A stretch of 45,599 bases of DNA. Origin: a virus (lineage: Duplodnaviria > Caudoviricetes). Below the pieces are notes generated by a model, which was given only the letters and a program-made list of their open reading frames with translations, was not told where the DNA came from and did not search any database. Location of the stretch: IMG/VR virus record IMGVR_UViG_3300044788_000027, positions 1 to 45,599 of that record, one strand, 5' to 3'. The position numbers were made by a program, and so were the translations under genes. This document shows, one piece after another, positions 1 to 45,599 of the stretch (the first letter of the stretch is position 1; each line of letters begins with the position of its first letter).

Positions 1-201
1 GATCCTCGGCGACCTTGAGGTCGGCACGGCGCTCGCGCGCCGGCACGGCGACGTTCCCGACGTCGGGACGGCGTGGTTCCCGCTCGAGCACGACAACGGC
101 ACGCTCGGCGAAGAGGCCGCGCTCGGCGCGCTCGGCCTGGTCGAGATCAAGCTGACCGACGCCGAAGAGGCGATCCTCGCGCAGCCCGTGCCCGTCACGG
201 C
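1..201. repeat. Terminal direct repeat, left copy (circular overlap)
   Basis: Matches 45399-45599 except T74 vs G45472. Confidence 0.95.
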
Positions 202-994
202 CGTGCTCATCAAACCGACCGGGCAGCCCTATCTCTCGCACCCGAGTTACACGCAGTGGTTCAACCGCGCGTTCGGCCGCCTGGGGTGGGCGATCGTCCC
301 GAAGGCGAAGCCCCGCATGGCCGACAAGACGATTAGCTGCCCCTACATCCTCTACATCCACGGCAAGCCCGCCGCGTTCGCGCTCGGTGAGCAGGAATAC
401 CACGAGAGCAACAAGGAGCAGACCTACGGCGACGCCTACGAGGCGACCGTCGCGAGCGCGCTGCGACGCTGCGCGAAACGCCTCGGCGTCGGGCTCGAGC
501 TCTGGGATCGCACCTGGCTGCAGACGTTCATCGATCAGCACTGCGTCAAGGTCTGGTGTGGCGACGACCCCAAACCGAAATGGCGGCGCCGGCAGGATCC
601 GCCGTTCTGGAACGAGAAGACGGCCGCGGGCCGAAAGGAGCAGAGCACTGTGCGACACGAAGCCAACGACGACGATCAGCGCCGCGAGCAGCGCCGGCCG
701 CCATCCGCCGGCCACGACGGCCGCGGCGACGAGCTCATCACACAAGCCCACGTAGACGCCGCCGGCGTGAAGAAACTCGGCCAGGTCGAGCGGCTCGGGA
801 TCATTCTGCGGAATAGCGGGCGCGACGTCATGCAGTTCAAGATGTGGCTGGTGCGCAACTACAACATCGACAGTCGGAAGCTGATCAAGCGCCGCGACTA
901 CGATGCCATCTGCGCGGCCATCGAGGCGCCGGGCGAGCTGCCGGAACGATCGGATCCGTTCCCCGCGGTGCGCGAGCCAGGGCAGGAGGGGTAA
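2..994 (+). CDS. Mgm101/Rad52(Sak)-family ssDNA annealing protein, 3' part (gene crosses the circular junction, start about 45235)
   Basis: EAILAQP..LIKPTGQPYLSHPSYTQWFNRAFGRLGW..GEQEY..ALRRCAKRLGVGLELWD matches the Mgm101p/Rad52 core as I recall it; frame stays open across the junction. Confidence 0.8.
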   Translation: MLGDLEVGTALARRHGDVPDVGTAWFPLEHDNGTLGEEAALGALGLVEIKLTDAEEAILAQPVPVTAVLIKPTGQPYLSHPSYTQWFNRAFGRLGWAIVPKAKPRMADKTISCPYILYIHGKPAAFALGEQEYHESNKEQTYGDAYEATVASALRRCAKRLGVGLELWDRTWLQTFIDQHCVKVWCGDDPKPKWRRRQDPPFWNEKTAAGRKEQSTVRHEANDDDQRREQRRPPSAGHDGRGDELITQAHVDAAGVKKLGQVERLGIILRNSGRDVMQFKMWLVRNYNIDSRKLIKRRDYDAICAAIEAPGELPERSDPFPAVREPGQEG

Positions 995-1210
995 ATGATC
1001 GAGCTCTGCAACGGCTACGGCAAGCGCGTCGTGCTCAACGCGGACGGCCGCGGAACGTGCCCGCTCTGCGGCGCGATCGCCAAGGTGTTCTCGGTTAAAG
1101 TGCCTGTCGATTTCAAGTTCAAGCGTGACCGCAAGTTCCACGCACCACACGGCCGGATCAACCGGCATCCGCCGCTCGAGAGGAAAGGCACTGATGGCCC
1201 TGCCGTTTAA
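995..1210 (+). CDS. Small Zn-ribbon protein
   Basis: CPLC motif; ATG directly follows the upstream stop; GGAGG upstream. Confidence 0.55.
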   Translation: MIELCNGYGKRVVLNADGRGTCPLCGAIAKVFSVKVPVDFKFKRDRKFHAPHGRINRHPPLERKGTDGPAV

Positions 1211-1586
1211 GCCTGAAGACTTCCGCCGCATGGCCGAGCTACAGGGCGCGCTGACGGAGGTGCTCGCGCGCGCCAACGATCAGAAGCTCGAGGCGGCCAT
1301 CGCCGCGTTCGCGCTGATCCGCTGCGCGCGCACGCTGCTCGACCACTACCAGCCCGAGACGCGCGCCTGGCTGGTCAACATGGTCGTCGTGCCGTTCCTC
1401 GGCGGCGAGCCATTCGACGCCGTTACATCCCCGCCACCAGACCTGAAGGCGATCCGAGTGGTCGAGGAAGTTGCCAACCGGGCCCTGGCGCCGAATGCCT
1501 GTCGGTGCGGTCATGAGCATCACGGGATCCGGTGTCCGCATTGCCTCAATTGTCAGGCTCACATTGTCGGAGGGTCGAAGTCATGA
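1194..1586 (+). CDS. Hypothetical protein with C-terminal Cys/His Zn finger
   Basis: AAAGG before ATG1194; CRCGHEHHGIRCPHCLNC. Confidence 0.6.
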   Translation: MALPFKPEDFRRMAELQGALTEVLARANDQKLEAAIAAFALIRCARTLLDHYQPETRAWLVNMVVVPFLGGEPFDAVTSPPPDLKAIRVVEEVANRALAPNACRCGHEHHGIRCPHCLNCQAHIVGGSKS

Positions 1587-1711
1587 GCAAGAAGAAACCG
1601 GAACCTCGAGTCAAGCGGGACCTGGGCGGCCTGACGCCGAAGCGATTCCAGGGAGCTGATAGCCACCCCTCGACCGCTCGATCGATCGACCGAACGGCCT
1701 TGAAACACTGA
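1583..1711 (+). CDS. Small basic hypothetical protein (42 aa)
   Basis: GGAGG SD, ATGA overlap with upstream stop; MSKKKPEPRVKR...; fills the gap. Confidence 0.45.
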   Translation: MSKKKPEPRVKRDLGGLTPKRFQGADSHPSTARSIDRTALKH

Positions 1712-1712
1712 G

Positions 1713-2300
1713 ATGCTCGAGCTGCTGCGGCCGTTCCGCTTCGATGCCGACCCGCACGTCTACATCGACCTCGAGACGGGCGCCGAGGTGCCGCACATCA
1801 CCGGCATGCTCGAGGCGACCGGCTGGATCGATCGCCAGTGGTTCACCGAGGACGCGAGCGACCGCGGCACGGCCGTGCACAAGCTGACGGCCGACTACGA
1901 CCTCGGCGCCCTAGACATCGATCGGCTCGTCTCGCGCTATCGGCCTTGGGTGCTTGGCTACATCTACGCGATGAACGTGCTGCGGCCGGAGATCCTCAGC
2001 GTCGAGGAACCGCTGATCATGCAGCGCGGACTGATCTGGGGCGGCCGGCCCGATCGCGCCGTGCGCGTCGCGGGTGAGACTGGCCCGCTCGAGGTGAAGA
2101 GCGGCGACCCGCACAAGAGCCATGAGGTGCAGACCGCGCTGCAGGCGATTCTGCTTGAGCAGCGGCTCGAGGTGCCCGCGGAGTATCAGGCCCGCTACTG
2201 CGTCTATGTGCGCGAGAACGGACGGGCTAAAGTAGAGCGCCATGAACGGCGCGCGGACATCCGCAACGCGAGAGAGGTGATCTCAAAATGCTGTCGATGA
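1713..2300 (+). CDS. PD-(D/E)XK exonuclease (RecB/Cas4-like phage type)
   Basis: RGTAVH..VEE..GRPDR..LEVKSG..Q motifs; near the annealing protein, as in recombination pairs. Confidence 0.75.
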   Translation: MLELLRPFRFDADPHVYIDLETGAEVPHITGMLEATGWIDRQWFTEDASDRGTAVHKLTADYDLGALDIDRLVSRYRPWVLGYIYAMNVLRPEILSVEEPLIMQRGLIWGGRPDRAVRVAGETGPLEVKSGDPHKSHEVQTALQAILLEQRLEVPAEYQARYCVYVRENGRAKVERHERRADIRNAREVISKCCR

Positions 2301-2409
2301 TGCTCTCGATCTGGCGCTGGTTGACGGACCCCTCACCGAATCCGCGGCAGGTGTCTGAGGCCTGGCGCCGCGAACACGGCTACGGCTGGCGACCGGAGCG
2401 GCGCGACTG

Positions 2410-2964: not shown

Positions 2965-2967
2965 CAA

Positions 2968-3002
2968 TCGGGTAAGAATGGCATTCTTTCCCGAGCTATA
3001 AT
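2968..3002 (+). promoter_or_regulatory. Palindromic operator-like site followed by TATAAT
   Basis: TCGGGTAAGAATG-G-CATTCTTTCCCGA (2968-2994); TATAAT 2997-3002; ATG 3010. Confidence 0.5.
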
Positions 3003-3009
3003 TCCGCGG

Positions 3010-3719: not shown

Positions 3720-3764
3720 TCCCCGGCCGCGACCTCGCGACGGGCAAAGTGATCACGATTCGGA

Positions 3765-4107: not shown

Positions 4108-4140
4108 ATTGTTGACAACAATCCGGGCATCTGTCATGCT
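4108..4140 (+). promoter_or_regulatory. Sigma70 promoter with palindromic operator over -35
   Basis: ATTGTTG-A-CAACAAT (4108-4122) contains TTGACA; 17 bp to CATGCT, preceded by TGn; GGAGG SD follows. Confidence 0.65.
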
Positions 4141-4158: not shown

Positions 4159-5169
4159 ATGGCAAAAGCAACACGGGCGGCAGCGAACCGCCCCGATCAG
4201 CTCGCGGTGATTGACATCGCGCAGCAGCAGGGACTCGACGAGCAGGGTCTTGTGCGGGAGGTCGGCGCCAACGTCATCGCGTTCGTCGGCAGCCTGGCGC
4301 TCTTCTTCAAGACGGCGACGGCGCTCGAGGCGAAGGCCAAGGGCACGCTCGCGATCGCGCAGCAGCTCAAGGCGCAGCCGCCGAAGAACGGCGCCGACGA
4401 CGAAGTGCTGCAGCGCTTCATCATCCGCGCCCGCGAGGAATACAAGGGCGTCACGGCCCACTGGGAAATCACCAGCAAGATCTCGAAGTTCCACAAGACG
4501 TTGACCGCGGCCCGCGCGCGCGCCACCGACGCGCTCGAGGAAGCCGGCAAGATCGCGACTGAGTTGCATAACGACTACACGCGCGCCGAGCAGCGCCGTG
4601 TCGAAGCAGAGAACCAGCGCCGCGAGGATCAGGCCCGGAGCGACCAGCAGGCGATCCGCGATCGCGAGCTCGCCGAGGCCGAGGCCGCGGCCATTGCCGA
4701 AGAGGCGAAAAGCGAGAAGCTCTCGCTGCGTGAGGGGATGTTCCTCGAGAAGTATCTGGCGACCGGGAACGCGATCCTCGCCGCGCGCCACGCCGGCTAT
4801 CGAGACGCCGCCGCGCAGGCGCCGAAGCTGATCGCCTCGGCGAAGATCATCGACGCGATTGCCGGCAAGCGTGAGGCCGACGAGCTCCGCAAGCAGGCCG
4901 CGGCGCTCGCGACAAAGCCGCTCGACCCGGTGCACATCGAAGAGGTCAAGGCCGACGTCGGCAAGGCGGGCAGCGACCGCACGACCTACTCGGCGAAGGT
5001 CACCGACGCGGCGCTGTTCATCAAGGCCGTCATCGCGCAGACCCACGGGATCCCCGTGTCGTGCCTGGCGATCGACCAGACGCAGCTGAACATCTGTGCG
5101 CGGGACTTCCGCGAGCTGATCAACCGCTGGCCCGGCGTCGAGCTGGTGAAAAAGACGGGGGTGATCTGA
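4159..5169 (+). CDS. Coiled-coil phage protein with an inserted TerS-like HTH
   Basis: Long Ala/Glu/Arg helices; internal LSLREGMFLEKYLATGNAILAARHAGY. Confidence 0.7.
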   Translation: MAKATRAAANRPDQLAVIDIAQQQGLDEQGLVREVGANVIAFVGSLALFFKTATALEAKAKGTLAIAQQLKAQPPKNGADDEVLQRFIIRAREEYKGVTAHWEITSKISKFHKTLTAARARATDALEEAGKIATELHNDYTRAEQRRVEAENQRREDQARSDQQAIRDRELAEAEAAAIAEEAKSEKLSLREGMFLEKYLATGNAILAARHAGYRDAAAQAPKLIASAKIIDAIAGKREADELRKQAAALATKPLDPVHIEEVKADVGKAGSDRTTYSAKVTDAALFIKAVIAQTHGIPVSCLAIDQTQLNICARDFRELINRWPGVELVKKTGVI

Positions 5170-6268: not shown

Positions 6269-6537
6269 GCGCCCGCGTGATCGTCACCCTCAGCCAGCTG
6301 CACGACGTCGCGCGCCAGGTGCGCGAGCAGCGGGCCCACCTGACCGCCCTGCAGCGCGTCACTGCCCTATGCGGGTTGCAGGCCGCGGCGTTCGAGCTCG
6401 CGAGCCAGGTGCAGCTGCTCGAGCGCGACAACGCCGGCGAGGTGCTCGCCGACCTGTCGGCCTGGCGACGGGAGGCCGAGGTGCTGGTCGAAGTGGAGCG
6501 CGCCCTACTGCGCCGCGACCTCGAGGGGCGACGCTGA
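6265..6537 (+). CDS. Hypothetical helical protein
   Basis: Overlapping start and stop codons. Confidence 0.5.
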   Translation: MSARVIVTLSQLHDVARQVREQRAHLTALQRVTALCGLQAAAFELASQVQLLERDNAGEVLADLSAWRREAEVLVEVERALLRRDLEGRR

Positions 6538-6773
6538 TGCCCTGGCTGATGCTCACTCCGCGCGAGGTCGAGGACGTGTTCAGGGACAGCCCGAACCTAC
6601 AAGGCAATTCCCCGGCGCTCAGGGCCGTGCAGGAGCGGCTCAACCGCCTGACGGGCGAGGTCACCCTGTCAGACGAGCAGCTCGACGCCTGCAGGGCCGG
6701 CAGGACCAACTGGCGGGGCGGCCACGAACGCGCGATGAACGCCATCGTGCGCGCGGCCGACCGCATGGCCTGA
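6537..6773 (+). CDS. Hypothetical protein
   Basis: GAGGGG SD, TGATG coupling; ends just before the origin. Confidence 0.55.
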   Translation: MPWLMLTPREVEDVFRDSPNLQGNSPALRAVQERLNRLTGEVTLSDEQLDACRAGRTNWRGGHERAMNAIVRAADRMA

Positions 6774-6774
6774 C

Positions 6775-6995
6775 TTTTCAACAGGTTTTCCACAGGTTAT
6801 CCGCAACCTGTGGAAAACTCCCGACCCGCTCTAAGGGGATTCCCTTACCCGCCGGCGATTTTCACAAACCATCAACAGCTGCCTGTGCACGGTAACCTGC
6901 TGAGCCAATTGAGTTCTGAGCGGTTTTCCACATTTGCACAGGCCCTTCTTCTTCTTCTTATCCATACAAACCTATAAGAATCTAGGAATTAAGAG
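6775..6995 (+). other. oriC-like DnaA-dependent replication origin
   Basis: DnaA-box-like 9-mers TTTTCAACA 6775, TTTTCCACA 6786, TTATCCGCA 6797, inverted TGTGGAAAA 6809; TTTTCCACA 6924 / ATTTGCACA 6932, then GGCC, (CTT)5 trios at 6945-6959, then an AT-rich tract; only long AT-rich intergenic region. Confidence 0.8.
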
Positions 6996-7006
6996 CGCCG
7001 AACCCG

Positions 7007-7036
7007 TTGACAACAACCGGGTTTTTGACAACAATC
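7007..7036 (+). promoter_or_regulatory. Tandem TTGACAACAA operator/promoter motif
   Basis: TTGACAACAACC at 7007 and TTGACAACAATC at 7025; same motif as 4112, 34573, 44862. Confidence 0.55.
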
Positions 7037-7049
7037 GGCCGTTCCTGCG

Positions 7050-7583
7050 ATGGCATCCAACGCCGGCCGCGGCGCCTACTACAAAGGCCGCACGAAGAAG
7101 TGGCTGATCGCCCAAGGTTGGCAGGTGGCCGACCTCGAGGTGACGCGCTGGATCCATCCGCCCGGCCGCAGCGCTCTGCCAATCAAACGCGACCAATTGG
7201 GATCCGACTTGCTCGCCGTGAGCGCCCACCGCATCGCGTTCGTGCAGGTGAAGAGCGGCGCGCAGGCCGCCGGCGACACGCAGTTTCCTGACGCGCAGCG
7301 CGAGTTCCACCGCTTCACCTTCCCGCCGTTCGTGCGCCTCTTGATCGCCGCCTGGACGCCGGGCGCGCGGTTTCCTCGCCTGATCGTCGTCAACCCGAAG
7401 GAGATCACTGATGCCCAGGAAGCGACAACCGAAACCGGCCGGCCACGAACGACAGCAGCCCACACGCCAGGGCAAGCAGGCCGCAAAAGCCGTGCGCGAG
7501 AAGGTGCGGCAACCGCAGCAGCGCGCGCTGATCGAAGACGCCCGTATCGGGGCGCTCGACAAGATCGGCTACCGCTACGCTGA
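7050..7583 (+). CDS. PD-(D/E)XK nuclease, Hjc-type Holliday-junction-resolvase-like
   Basis: GAYYK..KKWLIAQGWQV..GSDLLAV..IAFVQVKS. Confidence 0.65.
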   Translation: MASNAGRGAYYKGRTKKWLIAQGWQVADLEVTRWIHPPGRSALPIKRDQLGSDLLAVSAHRIAFVQVKSGAQAAGDTQFPDAQREFHRFTFPPFVRLLIAAWTPGARFPRLIVVNPKEITDAQEATTETGRPRTTAAHTPGQAGRKSRAREGAATAAARADRRRPYRGARQDRLPLR

Positions 7584-7857
7584 GATCCGTGACGCGCGCA
7601 TCGAGCTCAATCGGCAAGAGAAAAAACTGAAGGCGCGGGCGATCGTCCTGATGCACCAGCACGGCAAGACCACCTACAAACACGAAGCGATCGAGATCGA
7701 GCTCGAGCCGGGCGAAGAGGACATCAAGGTCAAGGTGAAATCAGGCACCGAGATCAAGTCACACGGCGAAGCGAATCCCGACGACGGCACCGAGCTCGAG
7801 CAGGTGGAGAACGTCGATCTGCGCGAGCTGGAAGATCCGGCGCATGGAACGCGGTAA
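7411..7857 (+). CDS. Hypothetical protein (basic N-terminus, acidic C-terminus)
   Basis: AAGGAG SD; overlaps the upstream gene tail by about 170 bp. Confidence 0.65.
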   Translation: MPRKRQPKPAGHERQQPTRQGKQAAKAVREKVRQPQQRALIEDARIGALDKIGYRYAEIRDARIELNRQEKKLKARAIVLMHQHGKTTYKHEAIEIELEPGEEDIKVKVKSGTEIKSHGEANPDDGTELEQVENVDLRELEDPAHGTR

Positions 7858-8884
7858 ACACCGGCCGCGCGCCGGCCTCACGCGCGTCGAAGCGGTTCGG
7901 CCGATCGTGATCGGGCACTACAAGCTGACCGCGACCGGCATGGATGTGGACGGCCGGCCCGACTTTGCCGAGCATGCTTCAGTCGGCGAGTTCATCCGCC
8001 GCGCGCAATTCGCGAGCGGATTTTGGCTCGCCGATTGGCTGCGCTACGGCGACAGTCGGCACGAATGGCAGGAGCGGCTCGAGCAGGCCATCGACGCCAC
8101 CGGCTACAGCGAGAAGACGCTCAAGAACGTGCGCGCGGTCGGTGCGATCGAGAAATCCCGACGTCGGGAAGGCATCGAGTTCGGCCTGCATGATGCCGTC
8201 GCCTCGCTCGAGCCGGAGGAACAAAGCGACTGGCTCGAACGCGCCGCGGAAAACGGTTGGGGGGTGCGCGAGCTGCGCCTCTCGATTCGCGCGGCGCGCC
8301 GGCGCCGCGTGCTCGAGGGCCAGGCCACGCTCACCGGCATGTATCGCGTGATCTACGCGGATCCGCCCTGGCTCTACGGCGACAGCGGGCCCACCGCGGA
8401 CGGCAGCCTGGGCAAATCGGAACGGCACTATCCGGGCATGACGATCGACGAGCTCTGCCGGCTGCCCGTCGCCGCGCACTGCACGCCGCACGCCGTGTTG
8501 TTCCTCTGGACGACGGCGCCCTTTCTGATGATGAACCCCGGCCCGCGCGAGGTGCTCGAGGCGTGGGGGTTTGACTACAAGACGGGCCTCGTGTGGGATA
8601 AGGTGTTCGGCAACTTCGGGCACTACGTGCACGTGGCCCATGAACACCTGCTGATCTGCACGCGCGGATCGTGCCTGCCTGACGAGCCGATCCCGTCGCC
8701 CTCGAGCGTCTACCACGAACGGCGCTCGAGCATCCACAGCGAGAAACCCGCCGGCGTGCGGAAACTAATCGAGCAGCTCTACACGACCGGGCCCTATCTC
8801 GAGCTCTTCGGACGCGAACCTGTGCCCGGCTGGTCCGTGTTCGGCAACGACGCCCGACTCTGGGCGGAAGAGGCCGCATCGTGA
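7844..8884 (+). CDS. MT-A70-family N6-adenine methyltransferase with N-terminal LmbU-like DNA-binding domain
   Basis: VIYADPPW, LFLWTT, WGFDYKT, HEHLLI, HSEKP, YLELFGR..GW..FGN; N-terminal FWLADWLRYG..TGYSEKTLKN..EQSDWL. Confidence 0.85.
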   Translation: MERGKHRPRAGLTRVEAVRPIVIGHYKLTATGMDVDGRPDFAEHASVGEFIRRAQFASGFWLADWLRYGDSRHEWQERLEQAIDATGYSEKTLKNVRAVGAIEKSRRREGIEFGLHDAVASLEPEEQSDWLERAAENGWGVRELRLSIRAARRRRVLEGQATLTGMYRVIYADPPWLYGDSGPTADGSLGKSERHYPGMTIDELCRLPVAAHCTPHAVLFLWTTAPFLMMNPGPREVLEAWGFDYKTGLVWDKVFGNFGHYVHVAHEHLLICTRGSCLPDEPIPSPSSVYHERRSSIHSEKPAGVRKLIEQLYTTGPYLELFGREPVPGWSVFGNDARLWAEEAAS

Positions 8885-9763: not shown

Positions 9764-10735
9764 ATGGCACAAGGCATCAAGCTCGTTCGGCCGTCGTCTG
9801 ATTCCGAGAAACGCACGCGCACCACCGTGGACACGATCGAGCTTACGCCGGCGCTGGTGAAAACCTGGCAGATCCCGCCGTTTCAGCGGGCGTTCCGCCT
9901 GAATCGAAAAGTGCAGGAGGTCGTGCAGCAGATCATCACGGACGGCGGCGTGCTGCCCGGCGTGATCACGCTCGGCGTGTTTGAAGGCAGTGTCTACATC
10001 GTGGACGGCCAGCACCGCGTCAAGGCCTTTGAGATGAGTCAGCTGCCGCTCGGCTACGCGGACGTGCGCCAGCACTATTTCACAACGCTCGCCGAGATGT
10101 CCGACGAGTTCGTGCAACTGAACAGCAGCCTGGTGCGCCTGCGGCCCGATGACATTCTGCGCGGCCTCGAGGCATCGACGCCCGTGCTGCAGCGCCTTCG
10201 GAAACGGTGCCCGTTCATCGGTTACGAGCACATTCGGCGTAGCGGTTCCGGCGCCGTGATGTCTATGTCCACGTTCATACGGGCCTGGGTGGGCGGGCGG
10301 AACGAGTCGCCGGCCATCACCGTGCCCGCGACGACGGCCGTGCAGTTGCTCGACGAGGAAGAAGCGAACGGCGCGATCGACTTCGCGACCCTGTGCTTTG
10401 GGGCCTGGCAGCGGGACAACGAATACGCGAAACTCTGGTCAGGCATCAACATGATGCTCTGTGCCTGGCTCTACCGGCGGCTGGTGATGGGCCAGGGCGT
10501 TTCAAGCACCTCGAGATGGACCCGCTACACGAAAGAGGATTTTCGGCGCGCACTGATGGCTCTCTCGAGTGAGGCGATGTATCTCGAGTTTCTTGTCGGG
10601 CGGAACGTCAGCGGGCGCGATCGCTCGCCGGCCTACAGCCGCATCAAGACCATCATCGGCCGGCGTTATCAGCAGGACCACAATAAGAAACCGCTGCACC
10701 CGCAACCCTCGTGGTCGCACTCGGGAGCGCGGTAA
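9764..10735 (+). CDS. ParB/Srx-like (DGQHR) domain protein
   Basis: PFQR..YIVDGQHR..EFVQLNS. Confidence 0.7.
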   Translation: MAQGIKLVRPSSDSEKRTRTTVDTIELTPALVKTWQIPPFQRAFRLNRKVQEVVQQIITDGGVLPGVITLGVFEGSVYIVDGQHRVKAFEMSQLPLGYADVRQHYFTTLAEMSDEFVQLNSSLVRLRPDDILRGLEASTPVLQRLRKRCPFIGYEHIRRSGSGAVMSMSTFIRAWVGGRNESPAITVPATTAVQLLDEEEANGAIDFATLCFGAWQRDNEYAKLWSGINMMLCAWLYRRLVMGQGVSSTSRWTRYTKEDFRRALMALSSEAMYLEFLVGRNVSGRDRSPAYSRIKTIIGRRYQQDHNKKPLHPQPSWSHSGAR

Positions 10736-12322: not shown

Positions 12323-12359
12323 GATGTGGGCGCCCGATTTGAGTCACCATCTGGGGAGA

Positions 12360-14121: not shown

Positions 14122-14123
14122 AG

Positions 14124-32061: not shown

Positions 32062-35000
32062 GCGATTTCGATCAGACCATCGACGCGATGCAGGAACCCG
32101 CGCCCGGCACGCAGCCGGCGCCGCCGGATCCGTTCGATCAGGCCATCGACCGCATCAACGCCACCGGCCGCACGCAGCTCGAGACAGCGTTCCGCACAAC
32201 GGCCGACGTGGCCCCCGATCGCGCGGCCGAAGCGCGGCGCCTCGCGCTCAAGTTTGGCGCGCCGGCCCAAGTCATCGAGCGCAACCTCGAGGACTATCAG
32301 AAGCGCGCCGCCGGCGAGAAGCCGATCGACCAAATCACGCACGACAGCCCCGCGCTCGCGACGTGGGCGAAGGACACCAACAACGCGGCGATCGCGCAGG
32401 ACGACCTCGAGCCACTGGGAAATCTCGAGTGGATCCTCAAAGCCGTGCCGCGCGCGTTCCAGCAACAGGTTGATCAGGTCGCCTACAGCCAGCTCCGCTA
32501 CAAAAGTCTGTTCAGCACGCTGACGCAGGCCGAACACGACCTGATGGAGAGCACGAAGCGCGCGAGCACGCTCGGCGGCGAGCTCGGCGCCGGCAATAGC
32601 TGGTTCCGCAAAGCGATTACCGGCGCCTCGCAGCTACTCGCGCAAGGCGTCGAGCCGATCAAATACACCATCGCGGGACTTGGCGAGGGCGCCGTCGTCG
32701 GCGCCGTCGTGGCAGCCGTGGCCCCGCCGGCGGCCCCGATCACCGCGTTCGGCGGCGCGATGGCCGGCGCCGCGATGGGCGGCACCTACGGCGTCATCCG
32801 CACGACCGCGATGCAGGAGACGGTGCAGGCTTACGACGAGCTGCTCGAGATGCGCGACGAGCATGGCGTCGGCGTGGATCCGCAGATCGCGAAGATCGCC
32901 GCGCTCGGCGTCGGCGGCCTCAACGGCCTGATCGAGCTCGCCGGCGTCGAGAAGTTCCTCGAAACCATCCCCGGCCTCGACAAGCTGCGCGGCAAGCTCT
33001 CACGCAGCGCGATGAAGGAGGCACTGCGCTCGCCGACGATCCGCAGCGCGTTCCGCCAACTCGCGACCGAATACGGCGGCACGCTGACCGCCGAGACGGC
33101 GACCGAAGTGGCGCAGCGCGCCGTCGCGATCGCGGGCGAAGAGCTCTCGAAGAGCGCCAGCGCCACGAAGGGCGTCACGACGTTGACCGGCACCGCGGCG
33201 ATGCGCACGCCGAGCCAGGTGGGCACCGAGCTCATTGACGAAGCCGTGGGCGCCGTGCAGTCGTTCGCGCTCGGCATCGCGCCGGGCCCCGTCGCCACGT
33301 TCGTGCACGACGCGGCACGGGCCAAGCGCGCGAGCATCAATCAATCATTCTTCAAGGCGCTCAACGAGGGCGTGGCGCAGTCGAAGACGTTCGAGCGGCT
33401 GCCCGAGGCGGCGCAGCGCTTCGTGGAAGAGGCGACGAAGGACGGGCCCGTGGGCACCGTCTACGCGCCCATCGACAGCTGGCGGCAATACTGGCAATCA
33501 CAGAACCTCGACCCGGCGGCGATGGCCGAGCAGGTGACCGGCAACAAGACGGCTTACGACCAGGCGGTCGCCAGTGGCGGCGACCTACCGATCCCGACCG
33601 CCCGCTACGCGGTCACCCTGGCCGGCACCGAACATAACGGCTACTTTGCCGACGAGCTCCGGCTCGGCCCCGACGAGATGAACGGCCGGGAGCAGAAGCA
33701 GTTCGTCGAGCAGCTACAGGCCGCGCGCGAGCTCGTGACCCAGGCCGCCACCGCAGAGCCCAACGCGGCGCGCCAGGGGGTGCTCGAGCGCCTCACCGCG
33801 GCCGGCGTGCCCGCCGAGACGGCCCAACGCTACGCCGACATCTACGCCTCGGCCGGCGGCGAGTCGGGCATCTTCGCCGGCGGCGCCGTCACGCGCGCCG
33901 GCATGGATCCGGCCGAGTTCTACCGGCAATACGGCCTCACCATCAGCCGGGAGGGGCAGGCAATAAGTGTTCCACGTGGAACATCTGAGCAGACCCGTGC
34001 AGCCACCGCGGCAGCCACAGAGAAGGCGCCGGGCCCGCCACAGGACGACATCACGGCCGGCGTGCCCTCTGCTGAGGGCCAGGTGCCCGCCACGACGGTC
34101 GAACCCGCCCTGCCGGCCGGTGCAGGCCCGGCCGCGTTCGCGGGCCCTGAGCGGCGCCAGGCCATCGGCATCGGCCCTGCCGGCGTCGAGCGGCGCGCCA
34201 CGGCCGATCAGCCGATCGATACGACCGACGTGCACGCGGCCGTCGCGCAGATGGTCGCCGAGAATCCGAACATCAAGGCCGAGGCGGCAGCCCTGGGCGA
34301 GCGTGCGCGCGCGGCGAACCGGGAGAGCCGGGCCCGGATTGCCACGGCAAACCGGCGCGCAGACCCCCAGACGGAGCACTTCGCCGAGCAGTGGGCGGCA
34401 ACCGGCCAGGTGCGCACGGTCAGCCCCGCCGGCGTCGAGCACCTCGTCACCGAGAGCCAGGCCGAGCCGGGTAAGTTTGACGTGCAAACCCTCGAGGGCG
34501 GCGCGGTCACCGCAACGCAGACCGTTGAGAACCTGCCGGCCGCGGCCAAGCTGCTCGCGGACCATAAGGTTCTTGACAACAATCAGGCGACTGATCAGAC
34601 TGGAGCACCTCATGCCGGCCCCGAATCCCAACCGCGCGCGGCAGCTCGTAAGCGCGGGCTCGCCGCCGGGGACAGCATTGCGCCAAGCTCTCCGCGAGTC
34701 GTCGAAACCACAAGCGCCGCCGGCAACCGGAGCGTCCGGCAAGAATCGCCCGCCCAACGGGCTGAGCGCCGCGCGAAGCACTTCGCCGACGTCTTCAAGG
34801 TCGTCTACGCCAACGCGCGTCAACTAGACCCGACCGTCAACCGCAAAGCCCTGTTCGCCGAGTTCGAGCAGCGCCTCGCGCTCTACGACGAGCTGCAATC
34901 GCTCTATCGCGAGAGCGGCCACGACCCGAAGGATCTGCTGCGGGCGATCGCACAGCGCGGCGGCCTGGCCGAAAAGGCCGGCGGCTACACCGGCGAGATC

Positions 35001-38000
35001 GCCGACCTAAAGAGCGGCAACAAGTTCGGATCACTGCAAGGGGTCGGCGGCGTCTTCCGCAAGCGCGAGACGGACACGCGGGGCGTGCCAATCAAAGGGC
35101 TCGACGCGGACCTGATGACGACCTCGCTGCAGCAAGAGCAGCGGTTCAATTGGATCACCGACCCGAACGTGCTGCTCGACGCGCTCGACGAGATCAGCCG
35201 GAACCCGCCGAAAGAAGACACGTTCCCCGGCACGGCCGAGCTCTACGCCGACATGAACATCGACATGATGACAACGTGGTGGCGCGACAGCTGGCGCGAT
35301 CAGAATCTCACCGACGAGACGACGATCGATGACGGCAGCAGCGACATTCTCGAGCCGGCCGGCGCCGTCGATACCTCGTTCAACATCGACGAGTTCAGTC
35401 AATCGCTGTTCGACGAGCTCGAGCCGCCAACCGCGACGGAGACGCTCGCCGACACGCTCGACACCGGCGAGCAGCAGCCGCGGCTTCCCGACGTCGGGAC
35501 GGTGCGCGATCAGAACGTGCCGACGCCACAGCTCGAGGCGCCGTTCTCGCTCACCTCGGAGGTCGCCAAACCAGCGAAGGGCAAACAGACCACGCTGTTC
35601 CAGAGCGTCTATCACGGCACGCCCTACCGCTTCGAGAAGTTCGACCTGCAGGCGATCGGTAGCGGCGAGGGCGCGCAGGCCTACGGATGGGGGCTCTACT
35701 TTGCGGGCTCGCGCGAGGTCGCCGAGTATTACCGGGACAAGCTGACCGAGCAGCTCGGCGCGCCGGCGAATCAATTCACTGCGCTCGACACGTTCCAGAA
35801 CGACATTCTGCCCGACCAGGTGCGCCTCGACATCGCGAAGGGGCAGCAGGCGGGCGGCGCGTTCGAGGATTCGCGCGCGGCGATCGCCGCCTACAGGGCC
35901 GACTACACGGCGCGCCTCGAGCGGTCGGCGCTCTCGATTCAAGAGTTCAACGACCAGGCGGCCGGCGTGCATGCGCACACGCGCCAAGACATCGCGCTCA
36001 ACGAGGCGCGCGTGCGCGACATGGCGCGCAACCAGCAGATCCTCAGCGTGCTCGAGCAGCTCGAGGCGAGCGGCGACTTCACGACGGCCGCCGAAACGCG
36101 CGGCACGCTCTACACCGTGGAGATCCCCGAAGACGAGCACATGCTCGACCACGACAAGCTGGCAAGCCAGCAGCCGCCGGCTGTGCAGGCCGCGCTGCGC
36201 GAGCTCGGCCTGACCTGGCTGCCTACCCACATCCCGACGAACCAGGCCGAGGCGCTCAACGTGTTCGAGGCCGACTACGTGCGCGATATCTGGCTCGAGG
36301 ACGTCGGGATCCGCGAATCGCTGAAGGAAGGCCTGCACTACGCGCGGAACGACAACATGCCCGCGTTCCGCAGCTGGTTCCAACTGCACGCCGGGCTGTT
36401 CATGCCAGAAGGCAACACCGATCAGAACGGCCGACAGATCTACGACCAGCTGCAAAGCGAGTGGATGCAGACGAACCGCCACAGCTCGCTGAAGGAATCC
36501 GCGAAGGCCGCGAGTCTGCAGCTGCTCAGTAAGGGCGTGCTCGGCATTCGCTATCTCGATGGCGTCTCGAGGCGCAAAGGCGAGGGCAACGCGAACTATG
36601 TGCTGTTCGACGATCGGCACGCGCAGATCACCGAGTTCGGGCAGCCATTGCCCGCCGCACTGGACACGGCGACCGTCAACGCCTGGGCGCAGGACGTGCA
36701 GGAGCGCGCCGGCGCCGACCTGGTGCACTTCGACGTCCGACTACTCGCGAGCACCGGCGACCTCGAGCTCGAGACGATCGCCGTCAACCGCGGCGCGCAA
36801 CGGGCCGGCCTGGGCAGCCGCGTCATGCAGGAGCTCACGCGGTTCGCTGACCAGCACAACAAGCGCATCGTCGTGACGCCGGCGCCGCGCGGATTCGCGC
36901 CGGGCGGCGGGGCTGTGACCTCGAGCCGCTCGCGCCTGGTGAACTTCTACAAGCGATTCGGGTTTGTCGAGAACAAGGGCCGGCAGAAGGATTTCACCAC
37001 GCAGGCCGGCATGTATCGCGAGCCGACCGTGATCCCTGGTCGGGAGATGGCGCAACCGCTGTTCCACGGATCGCCGCATGACTTCGAGAAGTTCTCCCTC
37101 GAGCACGTCGGCACCGGGGAGGGCGCCGCATCTTACGGCTACGGGCTTTACTTCGCCGAGAACCCCGTCGTCGCCGCGGGCTATCACGATCGCCTGAGTG
37201 GCGAGCCGCAAGTGCGGCGCATGCAGATCGGTTCGCTGGTCGTCGGCCAGATGAACGATTTCGACTACTCGCGCAACGCGCACGTCAGCGACTACGAGAA
37301 CATCCGCGCGAGCTTGGCCGAGGATCTGCTGATCCATCCGCTCGATCTGCTCGCCGCCGGCGAGGCAGGTTTCCGCGAGCACGTGCTGAAGACGCTCGAC
37401 CAGAAGATCGCCGACTACGCGACCGAGTGGCCCGAGGGCGCGATCGCCGGTAAGGCGCTCCACGCGGCGCTCGCGAAACCGGGCGCGCTCAGTATCAAGT
37501 TCGATCCCAAGAGTGGCGGCGTCTACCAGGTTGACATTGCCGACAGGCACATCGAGAAAATGCTCGACTGGGACGCGCCTATTCAAGAGCAGCCGGAAGC
37601 CGTCAAAGATCTGGTGCGCAAGGCCCTGCAGGAGCAGGGCTATCTCGCTAAGGGCGAGAACGGCCCGCGTCAGCTCGTCAGCGCGTTCAAGGCGTTCACC
37701 CTTGAGCGTGGCGGCATGGCACAGGGGCCAACAGGCGAATTTGCTTACGACACGATCGTGCAGGCTGAAGTGCGCAAGCAGGGCGCCGCACTCCTGGCCG
37801 AGCAGCAGGCGCTCAACGTGAAATACCCCGGCCCTGGCATTGCGGCAATTCGATTCGGCGACACGCCAGCCGCGCAGATGGACCTGAAGCGGTTTCTCAC
37901 GATCGATGCCGAGCTCGGCAAGATTCGGGACACCGCGCCGAAGGCCGCAAGCGCGCGGCTCGCCGCGGCCGGGGTGCCTGGCTTGCGCTACCTCGACGCT

Positions 38001-41000
38001 GGATCGAGAGATACCGGCCAGGGGACGCGTAACGTCGTCGTGTTCGATGCGTCGATCGTCGAGCTCACGCACAAGGACGGCACGCCAATCACGGCCGCCG
38101 AACGGAAGGAATATCTGCAGGGGACGCCCGGCGGTGGCCCTGAAGGCCAGGCGACACCGCGCCGCGGCGCCATTCGGTTCGGCCCGAGCCGGCAGTTCGA
38201 CATCGCGCTACTCGAGCGCGCCGACCTCTCGACCTTCCTGCATGAGAGCGGGCATTTCTTCCTCGAGGTGTTCGGCGATCTGGTGGACAAGGTGACCGCG
38301 ATCGAGCCGGCCGCGCGCACCGCCTCGCAGACGCAGCTGCTCACCGACTGGGATACGCTGCTCGGCTCGTTTCGCGATCCGCTCACTGGCACGACCGGGA
38401 TCAGCTCGCGCGCCGCCATCACCGAAGCACAGCACGAACAATTCGCGCGCACGTTCGAGGCCTACCTCATGGAAGGGAAGGCGCCGAGCCTCGAGCTGCA
38501 GAGCACGTTCTCGCGATTCCGCGCCTGGCTGATCGGCATCTATCGATCGCTGAAGAACCTGGGCGTCGAGATGACCCCCGAGGTGCGCGGCGTGATGGAC
38601 CGCCTGCTGGCGAGCGACGCGGCGATCGCGCAGGCGGAAGCACAGCGTGGTATCGGCGCAATGTTCGTGACCGCCGAGATGGCCGGCATGAGCGCCGACG
38701 AGTTCGCGCTCTACAAGCAGACCGTCGCCGATGCCTCGAGGACCGCCCGCGAGCAGCTCGATCGCAAGCTGCTCAGTGAGGTGCAGCGCGAGCAGACAAA
38801 ACAGTGGAAGGCGATGCGCGAAGAGATCCGCGTCGAGGTCGAGCGCGCCGTGCATGGCGAGCCGGTCTACCGGGCGCTCAGCGCGATCCGCTCCGGCGAG
38901 AATCCAGACGGCACGCCGCTCGAGGAAGGCAAAGAGCTGACGCCGCTCACGCTCTCGAGTCAGGCGATCCGTAACCGCTACGGCGCCGCGCACCTCAAGC
39001 GCCTGCCTCGAGGGCTGACCACGACCGAGGGCGGGCTCGACCCCGACCTGGTGGCCGATCTGTTCGGGTTTGCCAGCGGCGACGCGATGCTCACCGCGCT
39101 CGAGAACGCGCCGCCGGCGAAGCGCGTCATCGACACGACGACGCAGCGCAAGATGCTCGAGGAACACGGCAGCATCCTGCTCGACGGCACGCTCATGGAT
39201 CACGCGCAGGCGAGCGTCTCGAACGAGGACCGCGAGATGGTCATCCGCAAGGAGATGCGCGCCCTGGGCCAGCTGCGCCGGCGCGTGGCGCCGTTTGTCG
39301 AGCAGGGCAAGCGCGCCGAGCGCGCCGCCGGCGCCGCGACACAGGCCGCCAGCGAGAAAGAACGCGCGTATGAACGGCGATGGTTCGAGGCCGAGGCGAA
39401 GCTGCGCGTCGCGATCGCGACAGGCGAGCAGCAAGTCATCATCGATCAGCTCACCGACGAAGTGAACAACCTACGGCAGAAAGCCCGCGGCGGCGCCGCC
39501 ATCATCCGCGCCGGCATCCCGCCGGCCAACGTGCTGCGCGACGCGGCGCGCGCGGCCATCGGCGACACGCTGATCCGCGACGTCAAGCCCGAACGGTTTT
39601 GGTCGGCGTCCCGCCGCGCCGGTCAGGACGCGATCGAGAAGGCCGCACGCCAAGACTTCAACGGGGCGATCGTTGCGAAGCAGCAGGAGCTCATCCACCT
39701 GCAGATGTATCGCGAGGCGCAGGCGGCGCTCGACGACATCGACGCCCGCGTGCAAGCCGCCAAGGATCTCGCCAAACCCTCGAGGCGCGCGGCCATCGGC
39801 CAGGCGGGCAGCGGCTACCTAGACCAGATCGACGGCCTGCTCGACCGCTATCAATTCGCCCACGTGAGCAACAAGGTGCTCGAGCGCCGGGCCGAGCTCC
39901 GCAACTGGGCCGAGGCCCTCGAGGCGCAGGGGATGCCCGTGGACTTGCCCGACGAGCTGCTCAACGAGGCGCGCCGGAAGAACTACCAGGAGATGACCTA
40001 CGCCGAGCTGGTCGGCGTCACGGACGGCATCAAGCAGATCGTCCACCTGGCGCAGCTGCAGGGCCGGCTGCTCAAGGCTGTCGATACGCGCGACTTCAAC
40101 GAGCTCCGCGACAACGTGATCGCGTCGATTCGGGCGAACCACAGCGCGCGGGCGCTGCCGCTCGAGTTCCGCGAGGCCGACGTGCGCACGCGCTCCGTGT
40201 CTAATTGGTTCGCGAGTCATCGGAAGATCAGCGACATCGCGCAGGCCTTTGACGGTTATGTAGACGGGGGCATCTTCTGGTCCGCGTTCATGCGGCCGAT
40301 CAACGAGGCCGGCGACGCCGAGCAGCTGCGCAAGGGCCAGGCCGGCGCCGCCTACCAGAAGATTCTCGAGCAGGCCTACCCCGGCCGAGAGCTCGCGACG
40401 CTGCGCACGATGCAGCACATTCCGGCCATCAACAGCAGCCTGTCGAAAGAGGCGCGACTGGCCGTCGCGCTCAACTGGGGCAACCAGGAAGGGCGCGATC
40501 GCCTGACGACCGACGCCACCCGCAAGTGGTCGCACGACCAAGTGGTCGCCATCCTCGACACGCTCGACGCGCGCGACTGGCAGTTCGTGCAACAGACCTG
40601 GGACTACCTCAACACGTTCTGGCCGGAGATCGCCGCGAAGATGGAACGGGTCACCGGCCTGCCGCCCGTCAAGGTTGAGGCGCTGCCCGTGCAGACGAAA
40701 TTCGGCGAGCTCAAGGGCGGCTATTACCCGCTGGCCTACGACAGCCGCCTGAACCCCCGCCAGGCGCAGCACGAAGAGGCGAACGCCGCGAAGCTGCAGA
40801 CCGCCGCGGCCTACATCCGCACGACGACGAAGCGCGGCCACGAGAAAACGCGGCAGGCGTTCGTGAAAAGCAGCGTGCGTCTCGAGATCGGCGTCGCGTT
40901 CGCGCATCTGGATCAGGTGATTCACGACTTGACGCACCACGAGACGCTCATCGACACGACGCGGCTGCTCCGTAATCCGCTGGTGACGAAGGCGATCCTC

Positions 41001-42176
41001 GAGACACACGGCGACATCGTGTTTCAACAGCTGACGCGCGGCTTGCAGGACATCGCGATGGGCTCGACGCCGAAGGCCAACACGGTGCTCGACAAGAGCC
41101 TCAACTACGTGCGCACCGGCACACAGATCGCCGGCCTGGGCTGGAACCTCTGGACCGGCCTGCAGCAGCCGCTCGGTCTGTTCAATGGCGCCTCACGTGT
41201 CGGCGCGCCCTGGGTGCTCCGCGGCCTGACGCGCTGGCTGCGCGACGCGGCCACGATGGAGCACACGACGAAGTGGATCGCCGAGGCGTCGCCGATGATG
41301 CGCGCGCGCACGCAGACGGCGACGCAGGATCTCGTTGATTTGCGCGCCGCGTTCCGACAACCGGGCGGCTGGTTCGACACGTTGGTGCGCACGGTCACCG
41401 CCGACCACGTGACGCAGCAGACGATCGTGGATTCGTTCCTGTGGCATATCGGTGTCGCGCAGCGCGTCGCCGACGTGCCGACCTGGCTCGGCCAGTATGA
41501 GAAATCGCGCGCCGCCGGCGAGAGCGAAGAACGCAGCGCTCGCATCGCGGACCAGGCCGTGCTCGACAGCCAGGGCGGCGGCCAGATCAAGGATCTCGCG
41601 CAGGTGCAACGCGGCGGGCCCGTCGCGCGCGTGTTCCTCACGTTCTACAGCTACGGCAATACGGTGTTCAACGCGACCGCGCGCGCGGCCGGCAAAACGA
41701 ACTTCCGATCGCCGACGCAGGTGGCGACGTTCCTCGGTCACCTGACGCTGCTCTACATCGCGCCGGCGTTCGCCACGACCATGCTCTCGCGGATGACCGG
41801 GCGCCGCGGCGGCGACGATGATACGCCCGACAAGTTCGTCGGCGACTGGCTGCAGGAGACGATCGTGACCGCGATGAACACGATGATTCTGTTGCGCGAG
41901 CTCGGCGGCCTGGCGCAAGACGGCGCCCGCGGCTACGCCGGCCCGGCCGGCACGCGGATCGGTTCGCTGCTTTATAACGCCTGGCGCCAGGTTGAGCAGG
42001 GCGAGCTCGACGAGTCACTGTTTAAAGCGATCAACGCGGCGGCCGGCATCTTGTTTCACTATCCGGCCACGCAGGTGCAACGCACGATCGACGGATGGGT
42101 GGCGCTCGAGGAAGGGCGCACGACGAACCCGGCCGTGCTGCTCACAGGCCCGCCGCCGAAGAATCAGGCCAAGTAA
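32058..42176 (+). CDS. Giant internal virion protein (gp16 position), polyvalent: two ART-like domains, GNAT-like domain, HExxH metallopeptidase-like domain
   Basis: YHGT/FHGS..GEGA..YG.GLYFA twice; [16 protein letters not shown]; [19 protein letters not shown]. Confidence 0.85.
33968..33983. promoter_or_regulatory. Chromosomal-type parS site
   Basis: TGTTCCACGTGGAACA, a perfect 16-bp palindrome matching the widely conserved parS consensus. Confidence 0.8.
34573..34614 (+). promoter_or_regulatory. Intragenic promoter/operator copy
   Basis: TTGACAACAATC; TTGACA-17 bp-CAGACT, then GGAG and an out-of-frame ATG at 34612. Confidence 0.4.
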
Positions 42177-43842: not shown

Positions 43843-43885
43843 CCTCGAGCGTCGAGGCGCGTAAACTCACAGAAGGAGCACCCGT

Positions 43886-44224: not shown

Positions 44225-44299
44225 TCCTCACGCGCCCCAAGCGGGAACCGTGCAAATCCTGGACGATTCCGGGGCTACACTACAAGCGAGGCTGATGCC

Positions 44300-44479
44300 A
44301 TGAACCTCATCGTGCTCCTGCTGATTCTGCTCATCGTCTTCGGCGGCGGCGGCTACTACTGGGGCGGCGATGACCGCGGACGCTACTACGGCACTGGGGG
44401 CATCGGGCTGGTGCTGGTCGTGCTCTTGGTGCTTTACCTGCTCGGCATGATTGGCCGCGGCTCTGGCCTGCGTCTGTGA
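44300..44479 (+). CDS. Small two-TM protein, DUF3309-like
   Basis: MNLIVLLLILLIVFGGGGYYW..GGIGLVLVVLLVLYLLG; GTGA overlap. Confidence 0.7.
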   Translation: MNLIVLLLILLIVFGGGGYYWGGDDRGRYYGTGGIGLVLVVLLVLYLLGMIGRGSGLRL

Positions 44480-44853
44480 CGGAGGTGCTCTCGGTCGGCG
44501 TGATCGCGGCCATCGCGGCCGGCGGGGCGGTCGTCATTGCGGCGCTCGCGGCCGGCATCGTCTCGATCATCACGGCCTGGCGCGCGATCGCCACTAAAGT
44601 CAGCGCGATCGAAGGCCACGTGAACAGCGAGAAGACGGCCGCAGAGGGCCGGATCGACAACCTGCGGAACGAGAACGCGTTACTGCGCGAGATGATCGTG
44701 GATCGCAAACAGACGGCGAGCCTGCTCGCGCAATCCGTCGCCACAGCGGCGCGTCCCGCCCCACTCGATCCAACGAACGCCCTTCCCCCGACCGGCGCGC
44801 AGCTCGAGGCCATCGCCAAGAGCACCGACGCGATCGACCGCAACACCCGCTAG
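44476..44853 (+). CDS. Membrane protein with coiled coil (holin/antiholin candidate)
   Basis: N-terminal TM followed by a heptad region. Confidence 0.55.
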   Translation: MTEVLSVGVIAAIAAGGAVVIAALAAGIVSIITAWRAIATKVSAIEGHVNSEKTAAEGRIDNLRNENALLREMIVDRKQTASLLAQSVATAARPAPLDPTNALPPTGAQLEAIAKSTDAIDRNTR

Positions 44854-44857
44854 CCCG

Positions 44858-44901
44858 ATTGTTGACAATAACGGGGACGGCTCGTAAGCTGTCCCTGTTA
44901 T
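44858..44901 (+). promoter_or_regulatory. Sigma70 promoter/operator with overlapping hairpin
   Basis: ATTGTTGACAATAAC; TTGACA(44862)-17 bp-TAAGCT(44885); 15-bp stem at 44868-44901. Confidence 0.65.
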
Positions 44902-45139
44902 GACCAAACCCAAAGACAACGCCCGCCCCGGCCGCACGTCGATTTTTCGCGACAAGGCCGGCGGCGACCGCGTGCAGGGCAACATCACCGCCGCGGGATC
45001 CGTGCGGTTCGAGCAGGCGCGCCGGCGCCTCGCGAAGCTGGCGGGCTGCGAATACGAGGACGTGAGCGACGCCGACACGATCGAGTTTCTCGCGCGCGGC
45101 GAGGGCGAGACGATCAAGGCGCTACAACAGCCGGCGTAA
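44900..45139 (+). CDS. Small putative ribbon-helix-helix DNA-binding protein (repressor candidate)
   Basis: Beta-like RVQGNIT followed by two helices (..SDADTIEFLAR); own promoter and downstream hairpin. Confidence 0.5.
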   Translation: MTKPKDNARPGRTSIFRDKAGGDRVQGNITAAGSVRFEQARRRLAKLAGCEYEDVSDADTIEFLARGEGETIKALQQPA

Positions 45140-45146
45140 ACACGAA

Positions 45147-45186
45147 CGGCCGGCCTGCCTTTGCGAAGGGCAAGCCGGCCGCATTT
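45147..45186 (+). terminator. GC-rich hairpin after the regulator gene
   Basis: CGGCCGGCCTGCCTTT-GCG-AAGGGCAAGCCGGCCG, with only a short T run. Confidence 0.45.
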
Positions 45187-45234
45187 GGGTGGAGATGGCC
45201 GAAGCACCATCAGCCTACCCGGAAGGGATCCCCA

Positions 45235-45599
45235 GTGTCAAAAAGTAAACCCGTGCGCGGTCGCTATGTGGGCGACGGTCGGCGCACGCGCACCGTCCCG
45301 ATCGAAATGAATCGGCAGGCGCCGCGCGCCGCGCTAATTCGCCAGGTCGGCGTTCAAAGCAAGCAGCGGTTCGCGAAGCAAATAAAACGCGCGCGCCTGA
45401 TCCTCGGCGACCTTGAGGTCGGCACGGCGCTCGCGCGCCGGCACGGCGACGTTCCCGACGTCGGGACGGCGGGGTTCCCGCTCGAGCACGACAACGGCAC
45501 GCTCGGCGAAGAGGCCGCGCTCGGCGCGCTCGGCCTGGTCGAGATCAAGCTGACCGACGCCGAAGAGGCGATCCTCGCGCAGCCCGTGCCCGTCACGGC
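45235..45599 (+). CDS. 5' part of the Mgm101/Rad52-family gene (continues through the junction to 994)
   Basis: GGAAGGGA upstream of GTG45235; frame open into the repeat. Confidence 0.65.
   Translation, partial: MSKSKPVRGRYVGDGRRTRTVPIEMNRQAPRAALIRQVGVQSKQRFAKQIKRARLILGDLEVGTALARRHGDVPDVGTAGFPLEHDNGTLGEEAALGALGLVEIKLTDAEEAILAQPVPVT
45399..45599. repeat. Terminal direct repeat, right copy
   Basis: 200/201 identical to 1-201. Confidence 0.95.

Follow-up and report, generated by a model that had tools for sequence, protein, structure and literature searches.

A host-type replication origin and a parS site in a tailed phage genome with no recognisable replication genes

The DNA analysed here is the IMG/VR virus record IMGVR_UViG_3300044788_000027 (Caudoviricetes), a stretch of 45,599 bases with 67% GC. 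We call this whole stretch the window; it is G000 in our family comparisons. Two elements of bacterial chromosomal type are considered: a DnaA-type replication origin at 6775–6993 and a perfect parS site at 33968. All well-scoring genes are on the + strand. The virion genes belong to the BPP-1/epsilon15 type (portal PF12236, capsid PF20911, Bbp16, Bbp19 and internal virion proteins), the same set found in these podoviruses. On the other hand, the window differs from them in a replication slot without genes and in having no close cultured relative: The nearest cultured terminase, with 48% identity, belongs to the Xanthomonas phage CP2 group. The genome is complete, as originally predicted. Its ends overlap by 201 nt with one mismatch, which gives a closed circle of 45,398 bp, and CheckV completeness is 99%. 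A metagenome contig extends 3,844 nt beyond position 1 (at position 74 it has the letter of the 3' copy), and the relative G003, a 45,615-bp record with terminal repeats, is colinear. Near-identical DNA is found in sediment metagenomes from several studies; two of these studies may be where the record comes from, and the contig just mentioned is from such a possible source run.

No replication, integration or ParA genes can be recognised in the window, in agreement with the original prediction. Comparison of 61 open reading frames (ORFs) with Pfam and PHROGs gave no polymerase, primase, helicase, loader, initiator, SSB, integrase or ParA family, and comparison of 30 early ORFs with NCBIfam gave no replication, integration or ParA family. 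Four Walker A strings are found in the six frames (terminase, methyltransferase, scaffold/protease and an off-frame ORF); of the four, only that of the terminase belongs to a plausible ATPase. A scan of the giant 3372-aa protein in seven pieces gave LPD22, ART-PolyVal and GNAT domains only, with no helicase or primase domain. Since the same libraries detected the initiators, helicases and integrase of relatives, this blank is not merely a matter of distance. No ORF of the window is common to all five origin-type phages described below and absent from the helicase-type ones, which argues against a dedicated hidden initiator.

The components of the origin are given in Table 1. Eight of the 18 relaxed DnaA boxes of the window fall within 200 bp, and 60 order-3 Markov simulations gave at most two. 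The TAA-N4-TGA element is presumably IHF-site-like, judging from the consensus of such sites; a comparable element at a comparable distance is found, by eye, in most of 30 origins from the order Vicinamibacterales and in three relatives (G003, G005 and G025). Bacterial origins contain a basal unwinding system (BUS), for which the portion of PMC8287927 (Pelliciari et al. 2021) consulted gives a search rule: a DnaA box and at least three NAN trios, with a spacer of up to 16 nt between them. In the window, the box at 6924–6932 has one mismatch to TTATCCACA (two are allowed) and six trios follow after a spacer of 12, in addition to upstream boxes whose number is above chance. These six NTN trios are the only run of at least four pyrimidine-T-W triplets in the genome, and G005 and G025 have four trios each under the same rule. 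The rule alone is loose: Seven of the 60 simulations pass it with at least five trios, so the box cluster and its context carry the significance. The original claim of an oriC-type origin is borne out, as box cluster, GGCC spacer, trios and AT tract agree with the published rule.

Several known systems may be compared with this origin. DnaA boxes at the origin and the need for a host replisome are also features of oriC minichromosomes and of P1 and other DnaA-assisted plasmid replicons. Minichromosomes are laboratory constructs, and P1-type replicons depend on a Rep and iterons of their own, neither of which has been found in the window. In the lambdoid O/P-type module an initiator gene holds the origin and a loader or helicase follows, whereas the slot of the window is non-coding. 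The bacterial BUS, in the consulted portions of PMC8287927 and PMC10201434, shares with the window a box, a spacer, trios, tandem boxes, a short GC spacer and an AT-rich tract. The differences are that the window's origin is on a phage, without adjoining dnaA or dnaN, and that its trios read 3'-GAA, the commonest bacterial form in these sources being 3'-GAT. The word "phage" is absent from the consulted main text of PMC8287927.

Relatives were gathered by their terminase, capsid, annealing protein and 79-aa protein, and we have compared what lies between the 336-aa gene on one side and the resolvase/methyltransferase genes on the other; this stretch we call the slot. Three temperate relatives (G002, G004 and G010), with an integrase and divergent repressors, have an O-like initiator in it. 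The slot of 25 integrase-less records contains a superfamily 2 (SF2) helicase and/or a loader-like ORF and DnaB; a conserved non-coding element of 400 bp usually accompanies them. In G204 there is a 418-aa ORF without family match, then short repeats. Five phages, the window, G003, G005, G025 and G029, only have a gap of 200–400 bp with DnaA boxes and pyrimidine-rich trios: We call them origin-type. A pattern scan for further members gave only three known ones and seven unrelated chance matches. Since the slot of relatives holds an initiator, a helicase/loader or a large ORF, it corresponds to the replication module, which in the window is filled by a cis-sequence. From these comparisons, it is likely that a copy of a host chromosomal origin has taken the place of the phage's own replication genes. 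Replication through a host DnaA origin, as originally proposed, is supported by the slot replacement, by the match to Acidobacteriota origins and by the absence of an ORF specific to origin-type phages.

The other slot fillings present features of their own. The one in G204 (L436:14631-16226) is a fourth type, with GTCACG-type repeats after the ORF and no parS. In helicase-type relatives, the element of about 400 bp is hairpin-rich, lies between the SF2 helicase and the loader/DnaB, has no Rfam match and may be an RNA-primed or structure-based origin. It has been seen in G009 at 25275–25824 (L113:5275-5824), in G006–G008, G011, G012, G014, G016, G017 and G023, and in L170 and L205. Rfam gave no matches in the window and in four loci of these relatives. 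A 160-aa ORF without family match precedes DnaB (L113:5824-6309 and homologues); in a weak alignment (probability 61%) it matches the G004 initiator in its C-terminal part. PHROGs names this initiator a DnaD-like loader.

The host may be approached through the origin. The dnaA-dnaN gaps were taken from 30 Vicinamibacterales-order genomes and 16 other Acidobacteriota, and profiles built from these gaps alone were searched against 46 phage sequences totalling 1.43 Mb. It was an unpublished genome, G040, that first pointed to this order; no count uses it. The slot of the window matched both, with E values of 0.006 for the 30 Vicinamibacterales-order origins and 1e-9 for the 16 others. The profiles matched origin-type slots and an unrelated phage, G001, and no helicase-type slot; the remaining matches are two marginal ones, above E 6, in distant unclassified relatives. 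The upstream box cluster aligns with the left part of Acidobacteriota dnaA-dnaN origins, and mean origin similarity is higher for Acidobacteriota than for 29 other genomes, one Firmicutes origin also being high. Many Proteobacteria keep oriC elsewhere. Going by these alignments, the host probably belongs to Acidobacteriota, perhaps to Vicinamibacterales. A GTDB prophage search with the annealing protein confirmed none of 83 candidates; terminase matches in GTDB reached at most 64%, in mixed taxa, with no close prophage and no host named. We should also note that the dnaA-dnaN gaps of the Vicinamibacterales order (L322–L351) have CTT-type trios and then a conserved TATAAT/TATACT word, unlike most other Acidobacteriota sampled, which have CTA trios.

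The original prediction also included a parS site, and there is one in the window: an exact 16-bp palindrome, TGTTNCACGTGNAACA, with a chance expectation of 1e-4. It is found within a run of nine codons ending in A or T, the longest in the 18 genes counted, where GC content at third positions (GC3) is 0.87. In G003 both the word and its reading frame are kept while the flanking linker diverges, and other relatives do not have the peptide. Judging from the codon run and from the conservation in G003, parS is kept by selection on the DNA word. The same word is found near dnaA in candidate hosts: It lies 7–10 kb from dnaA in 10 of 12 Vicinamibacterales-order genomes, and ParB and SMC are encoded in the five candidate-host genomes tested. 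On the phage circle, parS is 18 kb upstream of the origin, and 7–10 kb away in three relatives.

No cognate parA/parB has been found on the same replicon. The original statement that no ParA is recognised holds, but it had passed over a protein with a ParB/Srx-like N-domain at 9764–10735. This protein has been rejected as a general parS reader: It falls into a group with DUF6551/GmrSD_N, and four parS-bearing relatives do not encode it. Host ParB very likely reads the site, as had been suggested; selection at the DNA level and the tie to the origin type within the family support this use. Bacillus phage phi29, classed as lytic, has five parS sites, with host Spo0J and spore entrapment, according to the consulted part of PMC2731898. 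Like the window, it has host-type parS and no partition genes of its own; it differs in its five sites and terminal proteins, the window having one site, a host-type origin and no replication genes. As phi29 shows, parS alone does not imply lysogeny.

Within the family, parS accompanies the origin. With at most one mismatch, it is found in all five origin-type phages and in none of the other 29 classified records, 23 of which are at least 90% complete. Eight records with an uncovered or unclassified slot were left out (G013, G015, G018, G019, G020, G021, G022 and G024); among these, G013 has a one-mismatch parS and G019 a perfect one, in a context like that of G005. Two-mismatch matches in non-origin phages, which are near the control rate, were not counted, and ten metagenome loci were searched for parS only in part. 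One such two-mismatch word, in the helicase-type phage G007 at 43231 (L106:3231-3246), is near the same giant-gene linker and could be a decayed site. The position of parS is not constant: In G000 and G003 it falls within the giant gene, in G005 and G025 it follows a lysin-like gene, and in G029 it follows the terminase. These three locations suggest that parS has been gained or moved repeatedly, in a small sample.

Table 1. Features of the window and their coordinates
Feature	Position	Strand	Remarks
Upstream DnaA-box cluster	6775..6817	+	Boxes + at 6775, 6786, 6797; box - at 6809
Middle DnaA box	6858..6866	+	1 mismatch
TAA-N4-TGA element	6893..6905	+	About 39 nt before proximal box
Tandem DnaA boxes of unwinding module	6924..6940	+	Boxes 6924/6932
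GGCC spacer and six DnaA-trios	6941..6962	+	Adenine-centred on - strand; rule from consulted part of PMC8287927
AT-rich tract after trios	6963..6993	+	6945-6993 about 31% GC (hand count), genome 67%
Perfect host-type parS palindrome	33968..33983	.	Inside 3372-aa gene
78-aa ORF adjoining origin	6537..6773	+	In 4 of 5 origin-type and 3 of 25 helicase-type sequences
Mgm101/Rad52-type annealing protein, 5' part	45235..45599	+	Spans circle junction
Mgm101/Rad52-type annealing protein, 3' part	1..994	+	PF06420, E 4.7e-27
Exonuclease	1713..2300	+	phrog_298, E 6.6e-11
336-aa family-wide protein	4159..5169	+	Long coiled coil, small-terminase-like helix-turn-helix; left edge of replication slot
Putative junction resolvase	7050..7583	+	No library match; right edge of replication slot
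MT-A70 methyltransferase, LmbU-like N-terminus	7844..8884	+	Library scans
DUF6551/GmrSD_N-like protein, ParB/Srx-type N-domain	9764..10735	+	Absent from four other origin-type phages
Giant polyvalent virion-type protein, 3372 aa	32058..42176	+	LPD22, ART-PolyVal, GNAT; parS in variable linker
Two TTGACAACAA sites after origin	7004..7035	+	Sigma70 -35 word within imperfect palindrome; candidate promoter/operator
Same palindrome, before 336-aa gene	4109..4121	+	Motif match
Same palindrome, before 79-aa gene	44859..44871	+	Motif match
79-aa family-wide protein	44900..45139	+	Candidate regulator of palindromes; no fold match
Terminal overlap	45399..45599	.	Matches 1-201; closes circle at 45,398 bp

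Some other genes deserve mention. An exonuclease, an annealing protein and a resolvase had been named originally; library matches confirm the first two, while the third label is our assumption, taken from a PD-(D/E)xK motif and from the position of the gene. The methyltransferase at 7844–8884, a fusion of MT-A70 with an LmbU-like DNA-binding domain, is kept across the family. The polyvalent protein at 32058–42176 contains two ADP-ribosyltransferase-like stretches and a GNAT domain. A 408-aa ORF without family match is found between the terminase subunits (12324–13550), where relatives have lysin-like genes. The palindrome TTGTT-GAC-AACAA covers a sigma70 -35 word and is found in the window at 4109–4121, 7004–7035, 34570–34582 and 44859–44871. 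Most integrase-less relatives have one to four copies of it, and the three temperate relatives have none. Three early promoters have their -35 word covered by this palindrome, which, together with the 79-aa protein encoded beside one copy, could form a shut-off switch. It is also present in helicase-type relatives, and the 79-aa protein has no fold match.

A possible course of events may be proposed, by analogy with the known BUS mechanism. After injection and circularisation, host DnaA would bind the box array, polymerise on the trios and open the AT tract. The opened origin would recruit the host helicase and replisome, and the circle would be copied as a minichromosome, with host ParB loading at its single parS. 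Initiation at oriC obeys once-per-cycle control. An origin under host control would fire rarely, and the few circles would need host partition for their placement near the host origin and their inheritance: It is this low copy number that would make host ParB at parS useful. Helicase-type relatives start their own forks and would not need parS. For packaging, a second mode may exist, in which the annealing protein, the exonuclease and the putative resolvase could supply concatemers; these are also found in relatives with their own helicase. The circle might even persist over generations as an extrachromosomal prophage, which we regard as possible rather than probable. Only tentatively may these phages, lacking replication and partition genes of their own, be considered as natural minichromosomes, timed by the host through DnaA, segregated by host ParABS-SMC and kept silent by a single small repressor.

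Such phages would resemble known extrachromosomal prophages only in part. Among the features that define phage-plasmids, the window has a complete genome without integrase, and neither a plasmid-type Rep nor partition genes of its own have been found; its genome resembles those of the integrase-less, helicase-encoding relatives. Prophages of cluster A mycobacteriophages are extrachromosomal, with their own parABS and a RepA or RNA-based origin (Wetzel et al. 2020, PMC7157519, consulted in part). Unlike them, the window has no parA and has a DnaA-type origin; their prophage state has been shown, and the one proposed for the window is a suggestion from sequence. A run of RNA reads only gave a thin cover of 29 of 30 bins, uninformative on expression or lifestyle.

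Several observations weigh against the reading of a host-type origin coupled to parS. The origin-type phages form two or three lineages, so there are only two or three independent contrasts and the Fisher value of 4e-6 for parS against origin type overstates the case. The tree needs three changes of state, and a single origin-type clade is not rejected (p-AU 0.42). One contig, L205, combines a one-mismatch parS with a loader and DnaB. At the expected site, neither G003 nor G029 passes the strict trio rule. For GC skew measured at four-fold sites, z is 2.0 in the window, 0.2 in G003 and 0.7 in G005, with nine helicase-type controls between -2.5 and +2.0; whole-window skew presents no usable signal. 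Skew, for which a check around 6950 had been recommended, was uninformative. The origin of the window has a lower score for Vicinamibacterales than for the other Acidobacteriota, and a Firmicutes origin is also among its matches. Some 25 small ORFs could be assigned to no family. A profile-profile screen of 41 window ORFs against nine marker families initiators of relatives included, gave a top probability of 2.6%, but its positive controls were weak, three of four failing too.

The co-occurrence of trio-type origins and parS, for which a survey had been recommended, is not general among phages. Of 81 loci from two pattern scans of IMG/VR, 27 have at least four boxes before the trios and resemble textbook origins. 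None of these 27 unrelated viral records encodes DnaA, two have DnaB over the cut-off, and none has parS (10 are at least 90% complete and 17 below, several being near-duplicates). Host-type origins on viral DNA are not rare, and their pairing with parS is so far special to the family of the window. These records range from tiny circles to 160 kb: L462, L481 and L489 have 4.6–5.6 kb, L495, L499 and L519 have 95–162 kb, and L508, L512 and others are also included.

The explanation that competes best is a purely lytic use, for which the chances are not far below even: DnaA would start the first rounds only, and parS would position or protect the incoming DNA, or allow a phi29-like entrapment in dormant cells, with no stable prophage. 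It shares the origin mechanism with the course proposed above, and only lifestyle distinguishes them. Genes on one strand, without integrase or a divergent cI/cro pair, unlike G002, G004 and G010, are in keeping with it, and the early layout is the same as in helicase-type relatives without parS. The window has no dif-like site within three mismatches of the consensus, and the GTDB searches gave no prophage copy by annealing protein and no close one by terminase. Phi29, with five parS sites, is itself classed as lytic (consulted part of PMC2731898). Nevertheless, generic lytic use does not predict that parS tracks the DnaA origin within the family, and the palindrome on three early promoters could serve as a shut-off switch.

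It is unlikely that the box array is only a sensor or a sink, which gates the promoter at 7007 or titrates DnaA and so stalls host replication, with the phage DNA copied through host restart that recombination or transcription primes. Promoter-like sites are found 15–35 nt past the AT tract, an annealing protein and an exonuclease are encoded, and trios are degenerate in G003 and G029, as such a function would allow. Boxes alone would suffice for a sink, yet spacer, trios, AT tract and host-like upstream spacing are kept; the array exactly replaces the replication genes, and the same promoter words are present in helicase-type relatives without boxes.

Less probable still is a cryptic initiator among the small ORFs, acting at the origin with DnaA as a helper, as in P1-type replicons. 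Many ORFs have no family, and a 78-aa ORF adjoins the origin in four of the five origin-type phages. On the other hand, G003 does not have this ORF, some helicase-type phages do, the 20 largest direct-repeat families include no iteron-like one at the origin, and the same scans recognised the initiators of three relatives. Fold searches with models of the 336-aa and 79-aa proteins gave no match at E 0.001 (best Z 3.5), a structure-atlas search with a 111-aa ORF was blank, and PDB sequence searches of window ORFs were blank except for a weak small-terminase helix-turn-helix match; such blanks do not exclude a family, and for these three proteins the fold tests gave no match or no clear answer. 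The search for a hidden initiator that had been recommended gave none in these libraries and fold searches, leaving the roughly 25 small ORFs without family. Finally, chance, host contamination or incomplete assembly is very improbable: The record is listed as linear in IMG/VR and parS is within coding sequence, but the terminal overlap and 99% completeness speak against an incomplete genome, no dnaA or dnaN is found beside the origin and 6712–7310 is identical, without any difference, in an independent study, chance estimates for boxes and parS are low, and the presence of both elements in four relatives already refutes this explanation.

The tailed-phage replicons we know of bring their own initiator, polymerase or RNA primer; phi29, for instance, has its own polymerase. 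RNA-type origins are found in cluster A mycobacteriophages (PMC7157519, consulted in part). In the literature covered, which includes few subscription journals and no supplements, we have found no phage with a DnaA-trio or DnaA-only origin, or with oriC and parS together; the parS sites of phi29 were found. Both elements are known; what would be new within this literature is a tailed phage in which they make up the entire equipment for replication and partition.

In summary, if this reading is true, a copy of a host origin as the only replication function would be a further class of replicon, and would explain some complete phage genomes without a detected replication gene. The family is a natural experiment: The same slot has four interchangeable fillings, and parS goes with the DnaA type only, contig L205 excepted. 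The origin fragment is small and can be tested, and its layout offers a way to guess hosts. If persistence is real, these phages would have a kind of lysogeny independent of both integrase and Rep, to which the exchange of a helicase module for two cis-elements would have led; it would be invisible to phage-plasmid searches and missed by surveys based on integrase and Rep.

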